Assembly (NCBI GenBank): GCA_947167235.1
Contig: CAMVHF010000002.1
Location: forward strand, 1 to 51,962
DNA: 51,962 nucleotides
Source: an uncultured Alphaproteobacteria bacterium
GTDB lineage: Bacteria; Pseudomonadota; Alphaproteobacteria; RF32; CAG-239
Direction of reading: 5' to 3'
Shown: positions 5,407-50,236 of the stretch, piece after piece
Position numbering within the stretch: the stretch's first letter is position 1
How the letters are laid out: each line of letters starts with the position of its first letter
Notes under the pieces: model-generated
Database searches by the model: none
Told to the model about the DNA's origin: nothing
What the model saw: the letters and a program-made list of their open reading frames with translations, nothing else
Position numbers and translations under genes: made by a program

Positions 5407-5721
5407 TCAGAAGATATTCGGTTGTGTGCGCATAATTTCCTGCCAGCACTGCCGAATGAAGTCCAGCAGATGAGGTGTAATGCTCGTATCCGATTTCAAA
5501 ATTCTGTCATCAGGATTAGTCGAACTCGGAACCGATTTATCTTCAATCTCGGCACGGATATGCTCCGGTACTTTGATTTTAAGCGGTGTTTCACTCCAAG
5601 GGGCACGCGTATAGTGCTGATCTTTAACGGCAACCTGCATCGTACCATTCTCCGTCATCTGCAATGAGATTGCATAGCTTTGTGTCGAGAGAATTTTGTT
5701 AATCTTAATAAAATAAACCAT
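5407..5721 (-). CDS. hypothetical protein (104 aa; start uncertain, alternative Met22)
   Basis: This is the only protein-like frame in the interval. The overlapping plus-strand ORF 5422..5667 is Arg-rich and low-complexity. I recognise no motif. Confidence 0.45.
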   Translation of the reverse strand: MVYFIKINKILSTQSYAISLQMTENGTMQVAVKDQHYTRAPWSETPLKIKVPEHIRAEIEDKSVPSSTNPDDRILKSDTSITPHLLDFIRQCWQEIMRTQPNIF

Positions 5722-16044: not shown

Positions 16045-18505
16045 ATGAAATTAGTCGTCGTAGAATCTCCGGCAAAAGCCAAAACCATTAATAAATATCT
16101 GGGCAGCGATTACAAAGTGCTTGCCAGTTACGGGCATATCCGCGATTTGCCGAGTAAGGACGGTTCGGTTGATCCGGATCATGACTTTGCCATGCAATGG
16201 GAATTCAGTGCCGCCGGACGCAAACACTTGAACGACATTATCACAGCCTTAAAAGACTGCGATACGCTTATTCTCGCATCCGACCCGGATAGAGAAGGAG
16301 AAGCTATCGCTTGGCATATTTTGGAAGAATTAAAAGAAAAGAAAAAGCTGACCGGCAAAAAAATCGAGCGTGTCGTTTTCCACGAAATTACCAAGTCAGC
16401 CGTTAAAGAAGGTATTGAAAATCCGCGCGAAATCGATAACGATTTGGTCAGTGCCTACATGGCGCGCCGCGCTTTGGATTATTTGGTAGGCTTTACATTA
16501 TCGCCTGTTTTGTGGCGCAAACTGCCGGGTTCAAAATCGGCCGGTCGCGTTCAGTCGGTTGCCTTGCGTTTAATCTGTGAGCGTGAAAACGAAATCGAAA
16601 AGTTCAAAACCGAAGAATATTGGACCGTCGATGCCGATTTAATCACACAATCGCAAGCTCACATGCTGACGCACCTGATTAATCTTGACGGTAAAAAGCT
16701 CGATAAATTTACCTTAAATTCGGAAGAAAAAGCTTTAGAAGCTAAGGCTAAAATCGAAGCACAGGATTTCCATATTGACAATGTCGAGCGCAAAAAAGCC
16801 AGCCGCTATCCGGCACCGCCGTTTACGACTTCGACATTACAACAAGAGGCTGCGCGCAAATTAAGATTTTCAGCCAAAAAGACCATGCAAGTTGCGCAGA
16901 AACTTTATGAAGACGGTTATATCACCTACATGCGTACCGATGCCGTCAATCTTTCCAAAGATGCCATAAGCGCTTGCCGTGAAGCCATTAAAAAATATTT
17001 CGGCGAATCTTATTTACCGAAAACCGCCAAAGAATATAAAAACAAGACCAAAAATGCCCAAGAAGCACACGAGGCTATTCGTCCGTCTGACGTAATGAAT
17101 ACGCCGAAAAAGATGGAAATGAAATTGGACAGCGATGCCCACAAGCTTTATGAGCTGATTTGGAAGCGTACGGTCGCCTGCCAGATGAATCCGGCCATTT
17201 TGGATAAAGTCGTTGTCGATGCCAAATCGGCTGATAATAAAATTTTATTGCGTGCCAACGGTCAGGTTATTCAGTTCGACGGCTTTTTGAAATTATACCA
17301 AGAAAGTAAAGACGATGCCGACGAAAATGACGATAACGTTATTTTGCCAAACGTCGAAGCCGGTGAAAATGTCAATAAAGGCGAAATTAAGCCGACACAG
17401 CACTTTACCACACCGCCGCCGAGATTTACCGAAGCCAGTTTGGTTAAAAAGCTTGAAGAACTCGGTATCGGCCGTCCGTCGACGTATGCCAGCATTATCG
17501 CCGTTTTGCAAGAGCGCAAATATGTCCGTGTTGAAAAACTGCGTTTTATTCCGGAAGATCGCGGTCGTATTGTAACGGTATTTTTGGAAAACTTCTTCAA
17601 GAAATATGTCGAATACGATTTTACCGCCCAACTGGAAGAATTTTTGGATGATGTTTCTGCCGGCAAGATGGAATGGAAAAAGCTGTTAACCGGTTTTTGG
17701 AATAAATTTATCAAAACCGTCGACAGTGTTCAGCCTTTGCAACTAACCGAAGTTATCAACCGCATTGATGAGGCTTTGTCGGCGCACTTATTTCCACCGC
17801 GCGAAGACGGCTCGGATCCGCGCAGTTGTCCGGTTTGCGGTAAAGGACATTTAAGTATTAAATTCGGTCGTTTCGGTCATCGGCTGTTCGAATTATCCGG
17901 AATGCACTTATACCAAACCGCTTACGGATACTTCCGCCGAAGAACAGGAAGCGGCTGCCAATGCCGCTGTTAAGCCTGTAGCAAATGAAGATAAAATCAT
18001 GGGCCAATATAACGGTATGAATATTTACCTTAAAAAAGGACCGTACGGACATTATGTTCAGCTCGGCGAAGATGCTACCGCCACAACCGAAAAACCGAAG
18101 CGCGTTTCTCTGCCTAAATTCGTTAAGGCCGAAGAATTAACACCTGAACAAGCTGAGATTTTGATTTCGTTACCGCGTCAATTGGGTAACGGTATTGAAG
18201 CTAATATCGGTAAGTTTGGTCAATACTTAAAGCAAGGTACAAAATCAAAGTCGTTAACCGGTGCCGATAATATCTTCAACATAACGCTTGAACGTGCCGA
18301 AGAAATTTTGGAAAGCGCCGTTGCTAAACCGGAACCGAAGGTTTTGGGTAAACATCCGGAAACCAAAGAAGATATTACGCTTAATCGCGGCAGATACGGC
18401 ATGTATTTGAAATGTGGTAAAAATAATTACGCCATTCCAAAAGGTTATGCGCCGAGTTCGTTAACCGAAGAAGAAGCGATTAAAATCGTCACCGCGAAAA
18501 AATAA
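16045..18505 (+). pseudogene. topA: DNA topoisomerase I, reading frame broken by a +1/-2 frameshift near 17878 (track ORFs 16045..17973 and 17999..18505)
   Basis: It has the TOPRIM N-terminus MKLVVVESPAKAKTINKYLG and active-site Tyr block GYITYMRTDA. Frame 1 reads CPVCGKGHLSIKFGRFG and then turns to nonsense. From 17879, frame 2 (open from 17855) reads IGCSNYPECTYTKPL and runs into the 168-aa ORF. Confidence 0.85.
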
Positions 18506-44431: not shown

Positions 44432-44509
44432 GGCGGATGTAGCTCAGTTGGTTAGAGCGCTGGTTTGTGGTACCAGATGTCGAGAGTTCAAGTCCCTTCA
44501 TCCGCCCCA
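44432..44509 (+). tRNA. tRNA-His (anticodon GTG) with encoded G-1, C73 and CCA
   Basis: The sequence is GGCGGATGTAGCTCAGTTGGTTAGAGCGCTGGTTTGTGGTACCAGATGTCGAGAGTTCAAGTCCCTTCATCCGCCCCA. It folds as a cloverleaf with one A-C mismatch in the T-stem, and the extra 5' G pairs with C73. Confidence 0.9.
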
Positions 44510-44514
44510 GATAC

Positions 44515-44543
44515 AAAAAGGCTCCCGGAAGGGAGCTTTTTTT
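44515..44543 (+). terminator. rho-independent terminator after tRNA-His
   Basis: Stem GCTCCC/GGGAGC with a GGAA loop is extended by A/T pairs and followed by a T7 run. Confidence 0.75.
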
Positions 44544-44550
44544 ATTGGTC

Positions 44551-44675
44551 GGCGGATACAGATGAGAACTGACGGAAAGTCAGTTCGACTACAAGCGAAA
44601 GGCAGACTTTGAGGATGCCGGTCGCCGTTAGGCGATGAGCGCAGTGGAGCGAAGCCAATCTGATCATCCGCCCCA
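44551..44675 (+). other. 125-nt structured element bracketed by copies of the tRNA-His acceptor strands (tRNA-derived RNA or att-type duplication scar)
   Basis: GGCGGAT at 44551..44557 equals tRNA positions -1..6, and TCATCCGCCCCA at 44664..44675 equals the last 12 nt of the tRNA. Internal hairpins lie at 44566..44586 (8 bp) and 44622..44635 (5 bp). Confidence 0.3.
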
Positions 44676-44682
44676 TTTTAGA

Positions 44683-44712
44683 AAAGATGCCTGAAATACG
44701 GCATCTTTTTTT
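44683..44712 (+). terminator. rho-independent terminator after the tRNA-like element
   Basis: A perfect 9-bp stem AAAGATGCC/GGCATCTTT with an 8-nt loop is followed by a T-run. Confidence 0.7.
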
Positions 44713-45011
44713 GTTACTTGTTGAAATAACGCGCTTTTATTCTGAACACAAAAACAGAACAATCTTTTTTCTATGGATATATTAACCTTTAGAAAAAGTT
44801 TTCTATCTTGCAAAAATTCTTTTTATCCCCGTCTTATCCCCAAAGTCTTTCGGATATACCTATTCACAATGTTTTTTGGGGGCTAAATTAAACCTCATTA
44901 GCCTCAAAAGCCTCATTAGGTTTAGCTTTTTTCGCCCCACACAATTAGTATGGCGGTTATTTTTTATACTTACCACACTTATTTTCTTTATTTCCCTTAA
45001 GTTGGGGATAG

Positions 45012-45362
45012 TTATGCTTTTATCAGCTCTAAAAGTGCTTCAATTTGCTTTTGAATAGTTTTGAGCGTGCGGGTGTCTTGGTTTTTAATCAGTTTAACAA
45101 TGGCTTGCACGTTCTCCGGCAGTTCTTCAATTTGTGATTGTTCGTCGTCATTAAACAAAGAATCAACAGAAACATTTAAAGCCTCTGCCAAAGATAACAA
45201 AGTTGTTACTTTCGGGTCGCTTAAACCTCGTTCAATGTTAGAAATTGTGTTAATCATCTTGCCGGAAACGTCCGCAAATTCTTCTTGATTCATTCCCTGC
45301 TTTTTGCGGAGTGTGGCAATTCTTTTGCCTAAAGTTTTTAAGATTATAGTTGATTCGGTCAT
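45012..45362 (-). CDS. XRE-family helix-turn-helix transcriptional regulator
   Basis: 116 aa with the HTH_3 region LGKRIATLRKKQGMNQEEFADVSGKMINTISNIERGLSDPKVTTLLSLAEALNVS. Confidence 0.88.
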   Translation of the reverse strand: MTESTIILKTLGKRIATLRKKQGMNQEEFADVSGKMINTISNIERGLSDPKVTTLLSLAEALNVSVDSLFNDDEQSQIEELPENVQAIVKLIKNQDTRTLKTIQKQIEALLELIKA

Positions 45363-45391
45363 ATTCAGCCTTTCAGATCACCGGTTATTTT

Positions 45392-45483
45392 CACATTTTA
45401 ATGTGTTAAATACCATAGCGGTCGGCTGTGTGTTTTATTGCCATTTTGATTGACAGCGAATCTAGAACACATTACACTGTGTT
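45392..45483. promoter_or_regulatory. divergent control region: palindrome CACATT-TT-AATGTG, sigma70 promoter TTGACA-N17-TACACT, and palindrome AACACA-N6-TGTGTT over the -10
   Basis: IR1 lies at 45392..45405. The -35 is at 45450..45455 and the -10 at 45473..45478. IR2 at 45466..45483 encloses the -10. ACACATT occurs in both sites. Confidence 0.5.
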
Positions 45484-45521
45484 TAAGTTTTCTTTTTTTT
45501 TCATAGTGGAGTATATAATAC

Positions 45522-46370
45522 ATGAAGAAACATTTTTTAGTTATATTTACAGCTATATTGTTGTTAGTCGGATGCGCTAATGAAAGACTCTCTGCTATTA
45601 ATGAACAGTATAGAGAGACCCGAGCTGAAATACCAAATAATTGTTTTTTTCTTTCTGACTATTTCAAATATGATAATAATGAAGGCATACAATATGTATC
45701 ATCAATTCAGCAAGGCAAAGAGTGGTATGATACCAAGAAAATATATCAGACCTTAACAGCAGATGCAGATGATAACATCTTTCATAAATTATTGGAAGCA
45801 TGTGAAATCTGTGCAGAAGAGCGTCCGGAAGATGCAGTGAAATATATGAAATATAAAGAAAGCATCTTAAAGGTACAAAGGGATAAAGACAAAAAAATCA
45901 AAGCCGCTAAAATAGCTGAAGAGGAAGAATTAAAGAAGAAAAGGGAAGAAGAAGCAAAAAAATTAGCACTGTCAAAAAAATATAATGCAGAGTGGTGCGA
46001 TGGCGGAATTTTAAGCAAAAAGAATAGATGCTTATTAGAAGGTGAATTTCAAATTTTTGAGCAACAGGAGGCTGGTACTTTGGTAAAGCCAAGAATAAAT
46101 ATGAGCCTTAAAGAAATACAAATGCTGGCGGCTTTTTCGCAACTTTCCACGCTGATGTCAATGACAACTGGTGAACCGGATGAGCTTAACAGAGATCTTA
46201 ATGATATGGCTGATGAAATGCAACAATTAGTTTTTATAGAATCTAACGCAAAAGATTCCAACCAAATTGATGGTGCTATTGTAAAAGGTCTTTTCTTGCG
46301 TGACGGGGTGTATAAATACGATTCTTTGAGCGGAACAAGAACTGTGAAGAAAATAAAAAGATTACAGTAA
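45522..46370 (+). CDS. lipoprotein of unknown function with a central Lys/Glu coiled-coil
   Basis: Lipobox signal MKKHFLVIFTAILLLVGC. The central stretch is KIKAAKIAEEEELKKKREEEAKKLALSKK. Confidence 0.7.
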   Translation: MKKHFLVIFTAILLLVGCANERLSAINEQYRETRAEIPNNCFFLSDYFKYDNNEGIQYVSSIQQGKEWYDTKKIYQTLTADADDNIFHKLLEACEICAEERPEDAVKYMKYKESILKVQRDKDKKIKAAKIAEEEELKKKREEEAKKLALSKKYNAEWCDGGILSKKNRCLLEGEFQIFEQQEAGTLVKPRINMSLKEIQMLAAFSQLSTLMSMTTGEPDELNRDLNDMADEMQQLVFIESNAKDSNQIDGAIVKGLFLRDGVYKYDSLSGTRTVKKIKRLQ

Positions 46371-46394
46371 ATATTCATGGTGGAGTGCATAAAA

Positions 46395-47333
46395 ATGAAT
46401 CAACCTAATATTTTTGATTATGCAACAAGTGAGCTGTCACAAGATGCTTTTCTTTGCTATATGTTAGCATTCGGAAAGGAAAAATATAAAAGTGACTTTC
46501 CTAAAGAATACGCTATGGCACATAAATTTCTCGCCAAATGCGGCATTTCTGAAAAAGAAGAAATATTATCTGTCGAGCGTCAGGTTGAACATATCGATGT
46601 TTTGATTGTTACAACCTCACATATTTTGATTATTGAGGATAAAACTCACACCAATGAACATGACGACCAGATAATTCGCTATGTTAAAAATATCCGGTCT
46701 AATGATAAAAAATTCTCTTCTGATAAAAAAATAAAGGTTTGTTATTTCAAAACCGGCGATTATGTTCAAGGATACGTTCCCTCTGCAGAACAAAACGCAT
46801 TATCGCAGAAAGATTGCGTTTCCCTCAAACGTGATGATATGCTTGAACTTTTGGAAAATAATCGTGCAGATAATTTAATTTTTGAGAGTTTCTATCAACG
46901 ACTAAATTCAGTGAGAGAACGTATACAAGCCTGTGATGATACGGATATTATGACTTGGAACACTGAAAAATGGTTTGATTATCTTTATAATGCATTGCAA
47001 GGTCATAAATTTAATATTGAATGGGTGCATAATGCGCGCGGTGGTTTTTATGGCTGTTGGTTTGATTGGCACGATGTAACCGGTGGTGAAGATTATAAGC
47101 AAATAGAAGTTTCTTTTGCTGAAGGTAAAACATTGCAAGTAAAATTATGTTACAAATTCTCCGGTAAAAATAAAGAAATGACGCTTAATAGTAAATCTTT
47201 ATTAAAAGATTTACAGAGCAGGGTTGCAAAAGGATTTAAATCAGCCAATCGTATAGGAAAAACAACAACGTATGCCTATAAAATTGCTAAAAATAAAAGC
47301 GATGTAGAAAAGTTTATCCGGAATGTGTCATAG
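46395..47333 (+). CDS. PD-(D/E)XK nuclease family protein
   Basis: It has the core motif EHIDVLIVTTSHILIIEDKTHTNEHDDQIIRY (D...ExK pattern). GGTGGAG lies 9 nt upstream of the ATG at 46395, while the track ORF starts at 46377. Confidence 0.65.
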   Translation: MNQPNIFDYATSELSQDAFLCYMLAFGKEKYKSDFPKEYAMAHKFLAKCGISEKEEILSVERQVEHIDVLIVTTSHILIIEDKTHTNEHDDQIIRYVKNIRSNDKKFSSDKKIKVCYFKTGDYVQGYVPSAEQNALSQKDCVSLKRDDMLELLENNRADNLIFESFYQRLNSVRERIQACDDTDIMTWNTEKWFDYLYNALQGHKFNIEWVHNARGGFYGCWFDWHDVTGGEDYKQIEVSFAEGKTLQVKLCYKFSGKNKEMTLNSKSLLKDLQSRVAKGFKSANRIGKTTTYAYKIAKNKSDVEKFIRNVS

Positions 47334-47391
47334 TTTGGCGTATTGCTGTGTTTAAATATTTTTGTAAAGTTTTTTAGAAAGGAAAAATAAA

Positions 47392-47640
47392 ATGATTGAA
47401 AGTTTATATGATAGTAGCACCGGAACTATTACGGAATTTCCGCATATTTTGCATGGTACATTGAGTGCTACTCTTAGTAATGGGGGAACAACACTCAATT
47501 ATGGCACAAGTGGTGACGAAATTTTGAAATTTGACAGTCAGTATGTTTATATTCGTGATAGATATAATTCTAGCGATGTTGCGGTCTATAATGAAAACGG
47601 CTATGTAAAAACTGTTTCAATAAGTGATGTAGATTTGTAA
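47392..47640 (+). CDS. hypothetical small protein (82 aa, Ser/Thr/Gly/Tyr-rich, probably beta-rich)
   Basis: The ORF has AAAGGAAAAA upstream. Its stop TAA shares one nt with the next gene's ATG (TAATG at 47638..47642). Confidence 0.55.
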   Translation: MIESLYDSSTGTITEFPHILHGTLSATLSNGGTTLNYGTSGDEILKFDSQYVYIRDRYNSSDVAVYNENGYVKTVSISDVDL

Positions 47641-47873
47641 TGGCTGATAATACAGTATCTAAGGCTAAAAAAGAATCTGCCGCTTTAATGGCTGAATCTT
47701 TTTATACTGATTTTATGCCTATGGTGCAACAAATTAAAAAAGATGTAGCGACCTTAAATATAGCTGAATCGGATAAAAATACCGTAAATCGTATCAATGA
47801 CCAACTGACAAAAGCGGAAAGCTTACTAATGCAACTCAAAACTATTTCAAAGCATATAGTGAAAAATGATTAG
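47640..47873 (+). CDS. hypothetical small helical protein (77 aa)
   Basis: It is translationally coupled on both sides. There is a 1-nt overlap upstream and an 8-nt overlap with the exonuclease gene downstream. Confidence 0.55.
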   Translation: MADNTVSKAKKESAALMAESFYTDFMPMVQQIKKDVATLNIAESDKNTVNRINDQLTKAESLLMQLKTISKHIVKND

Positions 47874-48423
47874 TTTATTTAATAAATTTTTTCATAAAAA
47901 TAATATTACCACAAAAGTAGTGGTTAATACAGAAGTTACTGGTTTAGATTATAAAGATGGGCATAAACTTGTTGAAATTGCTGCTATTGAAATTGATAAA
48001 AATGATATTCAAACTGGTGCAGTATTTCATGCCTATATTAATCCTGAGCGCGATGTACCGGAAGAAGTTGTCAAAATACATGGTTTGGATTATGATTTTT
48101 TACAAGATTATCCGCCCTTTGCCGCCTATAAAAACGAATTTTTGAATTTTATCAAAGGCAAGGAAATCATCGGACACCATATTCTATTTGACTTAAACTT
48201 TTTGAATAATGAAATCGGCTTTAAGCCGGAAAACAAAATAACCGATACTTTAGAAATGGCAAAAGCCGTATTCGCCGGTCAAAAAAATCATTTATGCGCT
48301 TTAAGTGAACGTCTGAATGTGAAAATCAAGTATCCGGCATACAACGGCGCTTTACTGGATGCACTGCATATTATTGAGATTTATAAAAAATTGAAAAACC
48401 GCCAATCGGCATTTCATTTATGA
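47866..48423 (+). CDS. DnaQ (pol III epsilon)-like 3'-5' exonuclease domain protein with substituted catalytic residues
   Basis: It aligns by eye to E. coli DnaQ. ExoI VVVNTEVTGL matches IVLDTETTGM (D->N). ExoII GHHILFDLNFL matches IHNAAFDIGFM. ExoIII YNGALLDALHIIEIY matches LHGALLDAQILAEVY (H->N). Confidence 0.8.
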   Translation: MISLFNKFFHKNNITTKVVVNTEVTGLDYKDGHKLVEIAAIEIDKNDIQTGAVFHAYINPERDVPEEVVKIHGLDYDFLQDYPPFAAYKNEFLNFIKGKEIIGHHILFDLNFLNNEIGFKPENKITDTLEMAKAVFAGQKNHLCALSERLNVKIKYPAYNGALLDALHIIEIYKKLKNRQSAFHL

Positions 48424-48529: not shown

Positions 48530-50236
48530 ATGGGAAAATATGAAAAAGACACTATTAAAAATATTATAGAAAAAATTAAAGAAGGAAAGGTATTTTTACC
48601 TGCCTTACAGCGAAAATATGTTTGGGCAGAAGACCGAGTGACTAAATTTATGGATTCTGTCATGAAAAATTATCCTATTGGTACTTTCCTGTTCTGGAAA
48701 GTAAAAAACAGCGTGATAAACGAAAAAGAATATTCAATGTATGAATTTATCAGAGATTATCATCAGCGAGATTTTTTCAAAAACAAACTTGCAGCTCCCC
48801 CGACAAATCCTGATAATTCTATTTGGGCTGTATTAGATGGGCAACAACGTTTAACCTCTCTGTATATAGCTTTACAGGGAAGTATAAGTAATAAAATTCC
48901 TAATAAGCAATGGAAAAATGATGATGCTTTTCCCAAAAAAGAATTATACTTCAATATTCATAGTCAAATAAATGATGAAGATTCTTTTTATGAATTTGAA
49001 TTTCTGACTGCGGATGCAGCAAAAAGCACAAAAAATAATCAACTTTGGTATCGGGTTAAAGACATATTAAAGTACAAATTTGAAGAGCTTTACAGTAGAC
49101 TGTTTATTCCCAATAATTTATTAAATGACAGCGTCGCAATAGATAATTTATCAAAATTACATACAAGATTATTTAAGGATGAACTTATTAACTATTATGA
49201 AGAAGAGGCTGACTCTATCGATAATGTGTTGGAGATATTTGTCCGTGTAAATTCAGGTGGTATGGTTTTATCAAAAAGTGATTTATTATTTTCAACAATC
49301 GTATCGCATTGGGATGACGCAAGAGAAGAAATTGATTCTCTTTTAACCGCTATAAATAAGATTGGAGAGGGATATAAATTTACAAATGATTTTATTATGC
49401 GCACTTGTTTATATTTAATAGATGATTTAAGTGTATCATTAAAAGTTGAAGCATTTAAAAGAGACAAGGTGTTAAAAATTAAAGATAACTGGAACAGTAT
49501 AAAGAATTCCATAAAAACAACCGTCAATTTACTTAATGATTATGGTTTTAATGCCGAAAATATAATTTCGTACGTATCTATAATACCTGTCGTATATTAT
49601 ATTTATAAAGGCGGAAAACTTGATGAGCTGAGTAAAAATGAATTAAAAAAATATATAGTGATTTCTCAAGTTAAACAAATATTCGGAGCTTCAACAAATA
49701 CCGCGTTGACAAATATCAAAAAATTCATAAATACCGAAAAGTCTTTTGAATTAAGTGATTTATATGGAATACGTTTTACGGGCGAGAAAACTCTAAAATA
49801 TACAAGTGAAGAGATAGACGGCTTATTCGATACACATGAAATAGGTGCTTACACCTTTATGCTGTTATCTCTTTTATATCCAAACTTGAAATATAGCCAA
49901 AAGCCTTTCCATCAAGACCATATGCACCCTAAATCATGGTTTGAGAATGATAAAATCAAAGATTTGATTCTGCCAAATGGTGCAAAAATTGATAATGATA
50001 CTATTGTTGATTGGCAAAGAAAAAGAAATACATTGGCTAATCTTCAAATGCTTGAAGGAAGAGAAAATGAAAGTAAAAATGACACTCCTTTAGTTGAATG
50101 GTTAAAAATACCGTCAAATAAAGAGAATGTAAAATATTTGCCTCAAAATATATCTTACGAACTTTCAAATTTTGAAGAGTTTATGGAGGAAAGAAAAAAA
50201 CTCATGAGTTCAAAACTAAAAGAAATTTTACTATAA
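48530..50236 (+). CDS. GmrSD-type type IV restriction endonuclease-like protein (N-terminal DUF262, C-terminal DUF1524 His-Me finger)
   Basis: DUF262 motifs are LPALQRKYVW and LDGQQRLTSLYIAL. The C-terminal region is FHQDHMHPKS...NLQMLEGRENESKND. Confidence 0.8.
   Translation: MGKYEKDTIKNIIEKIKEGKVFLPALQRKYVWAEDRVTKFMDSVMKNYPIGTFLFWKVKNSVINEKEYSMYEFIRDYHQRDFFKNKLAAPPTNPDNSIWAVLDGQQRLTSLYIALQGSISNKIPNKQWKNDDAFPKKELYFNIHSQINDEDSFYEFEFLTADAAKSTKNNQLWYRVKDILKYKFEELYSRLFIPNNLLNDSVAIDNLSKLHTRLFKDELINYYEEEADSIDNVLEIFVRVNSGGMVLSKSDLLFSTIVSHWDDAREEIDSLLTAINKIGEGYKFTNDFIMRTCLYLIDDLSVSLKVEAFKRDKVLKIKDNWNSIKNSIKTTVNLLNDYGFNAENIISYVSIIPVVYYIYKGGKLDELSKNELKKYIVISQVKQIFGASTNTALTNIKKFINTEKSFELSDLYGIRFTGEKTLKYTSEEIDGLFDTHEIGAYTFMLLSLLYPNLKYSQKPFHQDHMHPKSWFENDKIKDLILPNGAKIDNDTIVDWQRKRNTLANLQMLEGRENESKNDTPLVEWLKIPSNKENVKYLPQNISYELSNFEEFMEERKKLMSSKLKEILL

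Follow-up and report, generated by a model that had tools for sequence, protein, structure and literature searches.

A tRNA-His island remnant in an uncultured alphaproteobacterium carries a PD-(D/E)XK nuclease and a degenerate DnaQ-like protein as separable modules

The stretch of DNA analyzed here, hereafter the window, is 51,962 nucleotides (nt) long and comes from an uncultured alphaproteobacterium (contig CAMVHF010000002.1 of GCA_947167235.1). At 44664–48423 it holds the accessory half of a small integrative island that targets a tRNA gene. Four genes of this segment, all on the plus strand, are considered: a PD-(D/E)XK nuclease of 312 amino acids (aa; 46395–47333), an 82-aa protein (47392–47640) of a family called here f84 (82/84 aa; f82 for the shorter form), a 77-aa protein (47640–47873, family f77), and a DnaQ-like protein of 185 aa (47866–48423). 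They do not constitute a single fixed four-gene system. The nuclease and the three following genes belong to separate modules, each of which is found without the other. Module A is a regulator (XRE or WYL) with a stand-alone PD-(D/E)XK nuclease. Module B has a core made of f77 (a predicted helical hairpin) and f82/84 (a predicted beta domain), usually followed by a tail-less degenerate paralog of epsilon, the proofreading subunit (DnaQ) of DNA polymerase III (Pol III). This second module, previously undescribed, is found repeatedly in phage-defence hotspots of Alphaproteobacteria from gut and rumen.

The four open reading frames (ORFs) and their junctions, as given in a preliminary description made from the letters of this DNA alone, are all confirmed from the ORF list and the raw sequence. 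A gap of 58 nt follows the nuclease, the TAATG at 47638–47642 joins the 82-aa to the 77-aa gene, and an ATG/TAG overlap of 8 nt (47866–47873) joins the latter to the DnaQ-like gene. In relatives, overlapping junctions are found in 24 of 25 cases for f77 to f84, in 8 of 9 for f84 to the DnaQ-like gene, and in 13 of 13 for p231 to the DnaQ-like gene (these loci are not all independent). In contrast, a gap of 20–93 nt invariably lies between the nuclease and the gene that follows. Purifying selection acts on all four genes: the ratios of nonsynonymous to synonymous substitution rates (dN/dS) are 0.05–0.37 for pairs with unsaturated dS.

The separation into modules is seen in the loci of relatives, whose hosts are uncultured gut and rumen Alphaproteobacteria (80 genome loci in the nuclease-anchored search; loci are cited by L numbers, and ORF calling in them was mechanical). 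The DnaQ-like gene occurs in 4 of the 31 close nuclease loci (L006, L008, L018, and L036). Conversely, a PDDEXK_4 nuclease is present in two of the nine long contexts anchored on the DnaQ-like gene, and PDC-S02 fills its slot in one. The earlier view of four genes forming one co-conserved unit fails on these counts. The nuclease stands without module B partners in L022 and L023–L028 and with f84 only in L002, L029, and L030, and module B lacks a PDDEXK_4 nuclease in L086, L089, L099, L103, L111, L156, L157, and L158. Within module B, the DnaQ-like gene is directly preceded by f77 and/or f84 in 13 of the 14 loci whose upstream sequence extends over 500 nt or more, and a protein of 226–234 aa is often found between f84 and the DnaQ-like gene.

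These observations bear on the reading of the cassette as one obligate defence system, in which the dead exonuclease would sense 3′ ends and license the nuclease, with the small proteins as subunits at a fixed ratio. Nuclease, f77, f84, and DnaQ-like protein do occur together in the window, L006, L008, L018, L036, L038, L041, L049, and L112, with nuclease identity down to about 37–47%; the context is rich in defence genes, and translational coupling is conserved in the part made of the small proteins and the DnaQ-like protein. We nevertheless hold this reading to be rather improbable: besides the loci with the nuclease alone or with f84 only and the eight loci with module B and no PDDEXK_4 nuclease, there is the invariable gap after the nuclease as against the overlaps inside module B, and the four-gene array of the window is itself a recent recombinant.

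The recombinant nature of the array follows from comparison with two relatives. The integration target is a tRNA-His (GTG) gene at 44433–44509 (plus strand, ARAGORN), and its 3′ end is the first of two exact copies of a 12-nt attachment (att) core, TCATCCGCCCCA (44498–44509, plus strand). The second copy (44664–44675, plus strand) is the attL of the island remnant, with island-type sequence to its right; two copies in the window compare with 0.17 expected. Window 44662–45013 matches the left end of the L008 island directly after tRNA-His. No third copy of the core downstream and no longer direct repeat are found within the window, so attR is lost, and the window has neither integrase nor primase-polymerase (Prim-Pol), only the left att copy. 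In a 60-nt sliding comparison, the window is 97–100% identical to the complete island L006 up to 48038 and, from 48039, 92–100% identical to L156 (GCA_036418035.1). The dS values against L006 change accordingly, from 0.04–0.06 (nuclease, f82, and f77) to 0.75 (DnaQ-like gene). L156 has the same tRNA-His flank (98–100% identical to window 44498–44675), and beyond it lie genes for an f77-like and a DnaQ-like protein, then GmrSD, a 209-aa gene, and OmpA; the succession of DnaQ-like gene, GmrSD, and 209-aa gene is also that of the window. The DnaQ-like gene of the window is thus a chimera of the island copy and the resident-islet copy, with a crossover at about 48039.

We infer from the identity switch that the deletion arose by homologous recombination, which is the simplest account. 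An L006-like island would have integrated at the att site beside a resident islet with f77, the DnaQ-like gene, and GmrSD. Recombination between the two direct DnaQ-like copies would then have removed, from the island, the 3′ part of its DnaQ-like copy, Prim-Pol, the small gene, the integrase, and attR and, from the resident islet, f77 and the 5′ part of its own copy, locking the cargo in place next to GmrSD. Such an event would account for the lack of mobility genes as well as for GmrSD as a neighbor. The cassette adjoining GmrSD had been taken as meaningful; that adjacency is instead inherited from the resident islet, as seen by comparison with L156. Between the two att cores, the 154-nt segment 44510–44663 is 98–100% common to L156:1–178 and has the look of a scar left at the same site by a previous integration and deletion.

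With integrase, replicase, and attR missing, the remaining genes could be regarded as the decaying, non-functional remnant of a dead element. This is very improbable given the dN/dS of all four genes, their intact reading frames, the invariant catalytic motif of the nuclease, and substitutions in the DnaQ-like protein that are patterned and family-wide. The preliminary description had itself proposed, as its alternative, a decayed replication module. One part of this stands, since in relatives the genes lie beside a Prim-Pol replicase in a mobile island and since the island is decayed in the window; the other does not, as the four genes are not decaying and are dispensable for the island (L022, L002, L029, and L030).

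In many close nuclease loci, the island order is a tRNA gene (His or Trp), a variable cargo slot, XRE (minus strand), the nuclease (plus strand), a second variable slot, and then, all on the minus strand, Prim-Pol/DUF3987, a gene of 123–146 aa, and a tyrosine integrase. Islands stand at tRNA-His in L008 and L012 and at tRNA-Trp in L006, L009, and others. Complete islands measure 7.3–10.8 kb between direct tRNA repeats: 10.8 kb in L006 (repeats of 96 nt at 5476–5571 and 16267–16362, 82% identity), 7.3 kb in L008 (52 nt, perfect), and 9.2 kb in L012 (56 nt). Integrase, small protein, primase-helicase, and att repeats are all present in these three, although not in the window. The first slot is occupied by AbiLi/AriA-like genes (L009), PDC-M19A+B (L010), bSEFIR (L015), or LmuB with genes for MC5 and CTD9 domains (L030; the MC5 and CTD9 labels are taken from the near-identical L002).

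This architecture resembles that of P4-like and PICMI-like satellites and of other small islands that integrate at tRNA genes (hitchers) in the size of 7–11 kb, the att repeats at a tRNA gene, the tyrosine integrase, the primase-helicase, a possibly AlpA-like protein, and variable slots with defence genes. PICMI elements combine integrase, AlpA, and primase with hotspots of defence cargo (PMC10803314). They are fis-adjacent in Vibrionaceae, whereas the present islands occupy tRNA-His and tRNA-Trp in gut and rumen Alphaproteobacteria, and the copy in the window differs further in having no integrase, replicase, or attR. No helper phage, induction, or packaging is known for these islands, and no relatives of them are found in IMG/VR. 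The 123–146-aa protein may be AlpA-like from its position and a reading by eye; Pfam and PHROGs give no match in favor of that label. A phage origin was considered and rejected, as the viral contigs of IMG/VR contain no close relatives of Prim-Pol, of the nuclease subfamily, or of the short DnaQ-like family, and the PHROGs matches are only to generic polymerase-exonuclease families.

Three further observations concern the ends of these islands. At tRNA-Trp (L006, 5476–5571 and 16267–16362), the duplicated part is not the usual 3′ end but the 5′ half of the tRNA (to the anticodon stem) with about 50 nt upstream, so that the island seems to supply its own promoter and 5′ half, rebuilding the tRNA gene. 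Directly after the right att repeat of L008, a 241-nt unit occurs in three to four tandem copies (16582–17395). Just outside the island of L006 (16450–18610), eight copies of a motif of about 57 nt, with a spacing of about 87 nt, run across three minus-strand ORFs, probably a family of repeat-protein genes.

The slot between nuclease and Prim-Pol is filled in various ways. It contains f82, f77, and the DnaQ-like gene in the window and L006; DUF6150, f77, f84, and the DnaQ-like gene in L008; f77, f84, and the DnaQ-like gene in L036; f82, f77, f84, a 120-aa gene, and a helicase reduced to DnaB_C in L013, L015, L017, L019, L020, and L034; membrane proteins in L009 and L010; and f84 alone in L002, L029, and L030. 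It is empty in L022. Elsewhere, a WYL regulator is followed by the nuclease, rep110, f77, f84, (p231), and the DnaQ-like gene (L038, L041, L049, and L112); the nucleases of L038, L041, and L049 are 37–47% identical to that of the window, yet are still ahead of f77, f84, and the DnaQ-like gene. A longer array is found in L086, L111, L157, L158, and L160, with GNAT or Fic, a 67-aa gene, f77 and f84, a protein of 224–231 aa, the DnaQ-like gene, an ankyrin protein, DUF6994, a 158-aa gene, WYL (minus strand), a variable defence slot, and DnaB_C (minus strand). A GNAT gene stands upstream of module B in L089 and L158. In L092, the gene upstream of module B, behind a divergent WYL regulator, is a full-length PDC-S02 homolog (4e-52), and it opens with MTIEPNIF like some PDDEXK_4 homologs (P0025 and P0058).

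Some of the proteins met in these arrays deserve a description. The DnaB_C-only helicase (about 322 aa, Walker A intact, Pfam DnaB_C 4e-42) is present in L015 (9228–10551), L017, L019, L020, L032, and L034; in islands it has a partner of 117–120 aa and takes the slot held elsewhere by the DnaQ-like gene, and it adjoins GmrSD and WYL genes in L089 (12445–13413, minus strand) and L158 (16038–16480, minus strand). The 226–234-aa protein has an N-terminal motif that resembles the start of DnaB_C, but its assignment as a pseudo-DnaB was dropped (hhalign probability of 3%, and no sequence match of that kind in Pfam or PDB). Two proteins are found between nuclease and f77: DUF6150 (L001:8986–9273; 95 aa with KYDxD repeats) and rep110 (L018:1556–1888, L012:10979–11326, and L038:2845–3159; 104–115 aa with GxIxxxWxGG-type repeats and a conserved C-terminus ARDYTIHGLE...WHFLI).

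The nuclease of module A matches Pfam PDDEXK_4 above the gathering score (28.9 bits vs. 22.3). Residues E13, D68, E81, D82, and K83 are invariant among the 28 homologs aligned, so that the D...(D/E)xK motif is complete and the assignment to the PD-(D/E)XK enzymes, already proposed, is borne out. With this active site intact, the nuclease should be active. Its start is placed at 46395, since homologs begin with MxQPNIF and an upstream ATG at 46377 is not kept in them. The AlphaFold2 (AF2) model, with a predicted local distance difference test (pLDDT) score of 88, combines a nuclease core at the N-terminus with an alpha/beta domain at the C-terminus. In a Foldseek comparison with PDB, nothing is found at E ≤ 0.001; the weak matches are to restriction endonucleases, to the nuclease domains of Can2 and Cap4, and to DR_1245. 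The best PADLOC match, to PDC-S26 (9.7e-8), covers the catalytic core only (residues 64–109 vs. 96–143 of the 397 in the model). The divergent XRE–nuclease pair is kept in L002, L006, L009, L010, L012, L015, L022, L026, and L029–L032. The nuclease would be a self-sufficient effector of the PDC-S26 kind.

The DnaQ-like protein has the fold of an exonuclease (Pfam RNase_T, PF00929, 4.2e-25 over residues 18–173). Its score with the NCBIfam model dnaQ_proteo is 151.5, below the cut-off of 222.7, and the DnaQ-like match is confined to the exonuclease domain. PADLOC matches are to generic DEDDh and PDC-S48 models only. The protein is 45–48% identical to canonical epsilon subunits of the alphaproteobacterial type (226–231 aa). 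Aligned to Escherichia coli epsilon (D12, E14, D103, H162, and D167), the catalytic positions read N21, E23, D109, N160, and D165. The claim that two of the five DEDDh positions are changed is therefore correct, and the trait is family-wide in the short relatives (134–190 aa): among those listed, only one has the His, which is mostly replaced by Asn in the others, and at the position of the first Asp most have N, T, or Q. In the long relatives (226–231 aa), DEDHD is kept in 25 of 25. As the substitutions are family-wide and patterned, they do not correspond to random decay, and dN/dS is 0.05–0.16. The protein is, from its residues and the selection on them, a conserved pseudo-enzyme, as had been suspected.

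Compared with Pol III epsilon, the fold and the residues E14, D103, and D167 are retained, and the differences are D12 to N, H162 to N, and the absence of the tail. The protein terminates about 20 residues past the last catalytic Asp, so that the C-terminal segment that binds the Pol III alpha subunit (roughly 45–60 residues) is absent. The tails of the family are short and variable, and the family is thus without the alpha-binding segment or a conserved clamp motif. The C-terminal QSAFHL (48400–48423) does align with QTSMAF of epsilon, but among the relatives only P0122, of the L156 lineage, has it, and a clamp-binding motif was discarded as a family trait. The genes differ from those of epsilon also in their location, in mobile islands and not in core contexts.

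Neither of the small proteins (82 and 77 aa) is matched in Pfam, PHROGs, NCBIfam, or PADLOC, which agrees with the earlier statement that no named system has this composition. A profile search gave about 67 clusters of natural fusions of f77 with f84 (157–162 aa), as well as forms of 137–140 aa that correspond to f77 with the C-terminal half of f84. (As an aid to the search, the profile also included adjacent gene pairs joined in silico.) Because of the conserved overlaps and the natural gene fusions, f77 and f84 can be considered as physically coupled, and the coupling put forward from the window alone is upheld. The families are narrow, with 42 clusters at 50% identity in 1.84 billion representatives.

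For a natural fusion, the AF2 model (pLDDT 79) has a two-helix hairpin and a domain of seven beta strands; the 77-aa protein is accordingly predicted to be a helical hairpin and the 82-aa protein to be rich in beta structure. The preliminary description had compared the small proteins with theta (HolE) and with HOT of phage P1, to which they are similar in size (76–83 aa) and in the adjacency of the gene to an epsilon-like gene. The analogy is not retained: theta and HOT are three-helix bundles, unlike the model of the fusion, there is no sequence similarity, and Foldseek finds no PDB match to the model at E ≤ 0.001, with theta and HOT outside the top 50. Against the viral structures of BFVD, the model has no significant match. 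In a large protein of 887 aa (P0345), the beta-hairpin motif from the C-terminal part of the f84 family (profile positions 122–153) occurs five times. These repeats suggest that the f84 domain is built from a propeller-blade-like unit, in line with weak fold matches to NHL domains.

The genomic company of both modules is rich in defence genes, and in this the original association with defence holds. The neighbors in the nuclease-anchored islands are AbiLi/AriA-like, PDC-M19AB, bSEFIR, and LmuB. Those of module B are the reverse transcriptase and PRTase of a type III-A retron, IetA-like and Cas4-like genes, a Gabija-like pair of OLD-TOPRIM and UvrD, and GmrSD, also as a pair. The retron (L089:1006–3391, minus strand) and the Gabija-like pair (L158:1–3477) lie less than 8 kb from module B, so that these regions are true defence islands. 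GmrSD near module B (the window, L156, L089, L099, and L158) is an association only. WYL regulators, a class that two published accounts (PMC9122601 and PMC9122588) describe as accompanying defence systems, are present in most long contexts of module B.

None of the known or candidate systems corresponds to the set of the window. The nuclease matches the catalytic core of PDC-S26, but over about 45 residues of a model of about 400. For PDC-S02, a full-length homolog occupies the nuclease slot of L092, upstream of module B. Both are candidates and not characterized systems, and for neither of them are small partners or an epsilon-like protein described. BrxU/GmrSD has a full-length match in the 568-aa neighbor in the window, but this is a gene of the resident islet and not of the cassette. 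PADLOC-DB 2.0 has no named anti-phage system with this gene set. Similarly, the fusion, p231, DnaB_C, rep110, and DUF6150 have no meaningful match in PADLOC. In the literature on DnaQ-like proteins, WYL, and anti-phage systems, on PDDEXK_4, and on inactive DnaQ in defence islands, module B is not described.

The explanation that we favor, with a confidence somewhat short of an even balance, is that of a locked island remnant with modular conflict cargo, in which a cutting nuclease stands beside a non-catalytic module B. Both modules would have phages or other mobile elements as their targets, and the nuclease would cut DNA. Module B, predicted to be able neither to cut nor to join the Pol III core, would most likely bind DNA 3′ ends, replication intermediates, or an invader protein directed at the replisome, and would act as a sensor, an adaptor, or a replication-interfering decoy beside the adjacent nuclease (PDDEXK_4, PDC-S02, or GmrSD). 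Two pointers to a replisome connection are the derivation from epsilon and the DnaB_C-only helicase as alternative occupant of the slot.

Several points weigh against this explanation. Module B has no recognizable effector, NTPase, or known sensor domain and no sequence feature that would indicate its ligand. Its frequent companions (ankyrin proteins, DUF6994, sigma-70-like fragments, and long co-directional arrays of small genes) are more typical of host manipulation by mobile elements than of defence, and it often flanks the variable defence slots, as do backbone genes of mobile elements. Most loci are on contigs of metagenome-assembled genomes or metagenomes, some of them near-duplicates, and all were anchored on the nuclease, the DnaQ-like protein, or the fusion, so that island-wide frequencies are biased. 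Finally, in the minimal island of 7.3 kb (L008), the cassette makes up five of the eight genes, which could mean a role in the life cycle of the island.

In such a role, the genes would help to replicate the Prim-Pol island or to hijack the replisome of the host or of a helper. The epsilon-like protein and f77/f84 would be adaptors or mimics of the replisome, and the nuclease would process DNA for replication or interfere with a helper phage. Nucleases have been reported for other phage satellites. Along with the composition of L008, the position of the genes between regulator and Prim-Pol replicase in bounded islands favors this, as do the identity of 45–48% to canonical epsilon and the presence in the same slot of the DnaB_C-only helicase (4e-42) with its 120-aa partner (L013, L015, L017, L019, L020, L032, and L034). 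Against this role stand the dispensability of the genes and the presence of module B where there are no mobility genes: L022, L002/L029/L030, and L009/L010/L012 are without module B or have unrelated genes instead, and module B is commonly without integrase or Prim-Pol within 8–10 kb (e.g., in L092, where it lies between core genes). The epsilon-like protein, moreover, is without two of the catalytic residues, the alpha-binding tail, and a conserved clamp-binding motif, and there are no relatives in the viral contigs of IMG/VR. We regard a life-cycle role as doubtful.

A more specific form of the conflict explanation makes module B a new kind of immune or interference device, composed of replisome mimics. 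The dead, tail-less epsilon, held by the adaptor of f77 and f84 (as two proteins or fused), would be a bait for DNA structures or invader proteins aimed at the host replisome, and the binding would be coupled to interchangeable nucleases (PDDEXK_4, PDC-S02, or GmrSD). Sister loci hold in the DnaQ-like slot either the helicase with only the C-domain of DnaB or the 226–234-aa protein. Stated with this degree of detail, the proposal is unlikely.

Module B could also be counter-defence cargo, either a decoy of host epsilon or a non-cleaving sponge of DEDD fold for DNA ends or nucleotide signals, with the nuclease as an unrelated neighbor. Three of the four acidic catalytic residues are retained in the pseudo-enzyme, which points to a protein that binds but does not cleave; the proteins are small, unannotated, and lineage-restricted (the 42 clusters above); and they are carried by mobile islands, co-directional with ankyrin-type genes. 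However, module B is present as well in chromosomal islets with WYL regulators and without mobility genes, it has no similarity to known anti-defence proteins in the libraries searched, and it is kept with GmrSD across two genomes about 13% apart in DNA, for which a benefit to the host is the easier explanation. We consider counter-defence improbable and retain the locked island remnant with its two kinds of conflict cargo.

If module B works as a unit, it would be a case where a pseudo-enzyme derived from a core replisome subunit joins the parts of bacterial conflict systems, and one in which replisome mimicry on small mobile islands can be tested. Whatever the function, the window is a clean example of a satellite-like island locked into the chromosome. 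Recombination between a cargo gene and its resident paralog would have eliminated integrase and replicase in one step and created a new gene array beside a restriction enzyme. The islands at tRNA-His and tRNA-Trp in uncultured gut and rumen Alphaproteobacteria are unexplored, and their variable slots carry defences of the Lamassu, AbiL, bSEFIR, retron, and GmrSD types. The families are narrow and the hosts uncultured, which limits the reach of these remarks.

In the local setting, G+C falls to 0.30–0.35 across 45–50 kb, from about 0.40–0.44. The tRNA gene, the upstream XRE regulator, and the downstream GmrSD gene had been correctly noted, and a gene between XRE and nuclease had been passed over. 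The XRE/HTH_3 regulator (45012–45362, minus strand) is divergent from the operon (Pfam HTH_3 9e-16; PADLOC models HTH_VI, capH, and control protein). The type IV restriction enzyme (DUF262/DUF1524, 568 aa, 48530–50236, plus strand) is a GmrSD of the BrxU type, with a full-length match to PADLOC HEC-05 (1e-187), HEC-05 being BrxU (bioRxiv 10.1101/2024.01.29.577857). GmrSD_N is matched at 1.8e-32 and GmrSD_C weakly (0.002, under the cut-off), and DGQQR is present in the translation. Between XRE and the operon, a candidate promoter, TTGACA-17-TACACT (45450–45478, plus strand), was located by consensus scan; the overall count of such motifs is not above that of shuffled sequences. The gene that had been passed over (45522–46370, plus strand) encodes a predicted lipoprotein of 282 aa with the lipobox LVGC. 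It has weak NCBIfam matches to lipoproteins, although no family match, and counterparts only in L006 and L007; it could be cargo of the surface-exclusion type.

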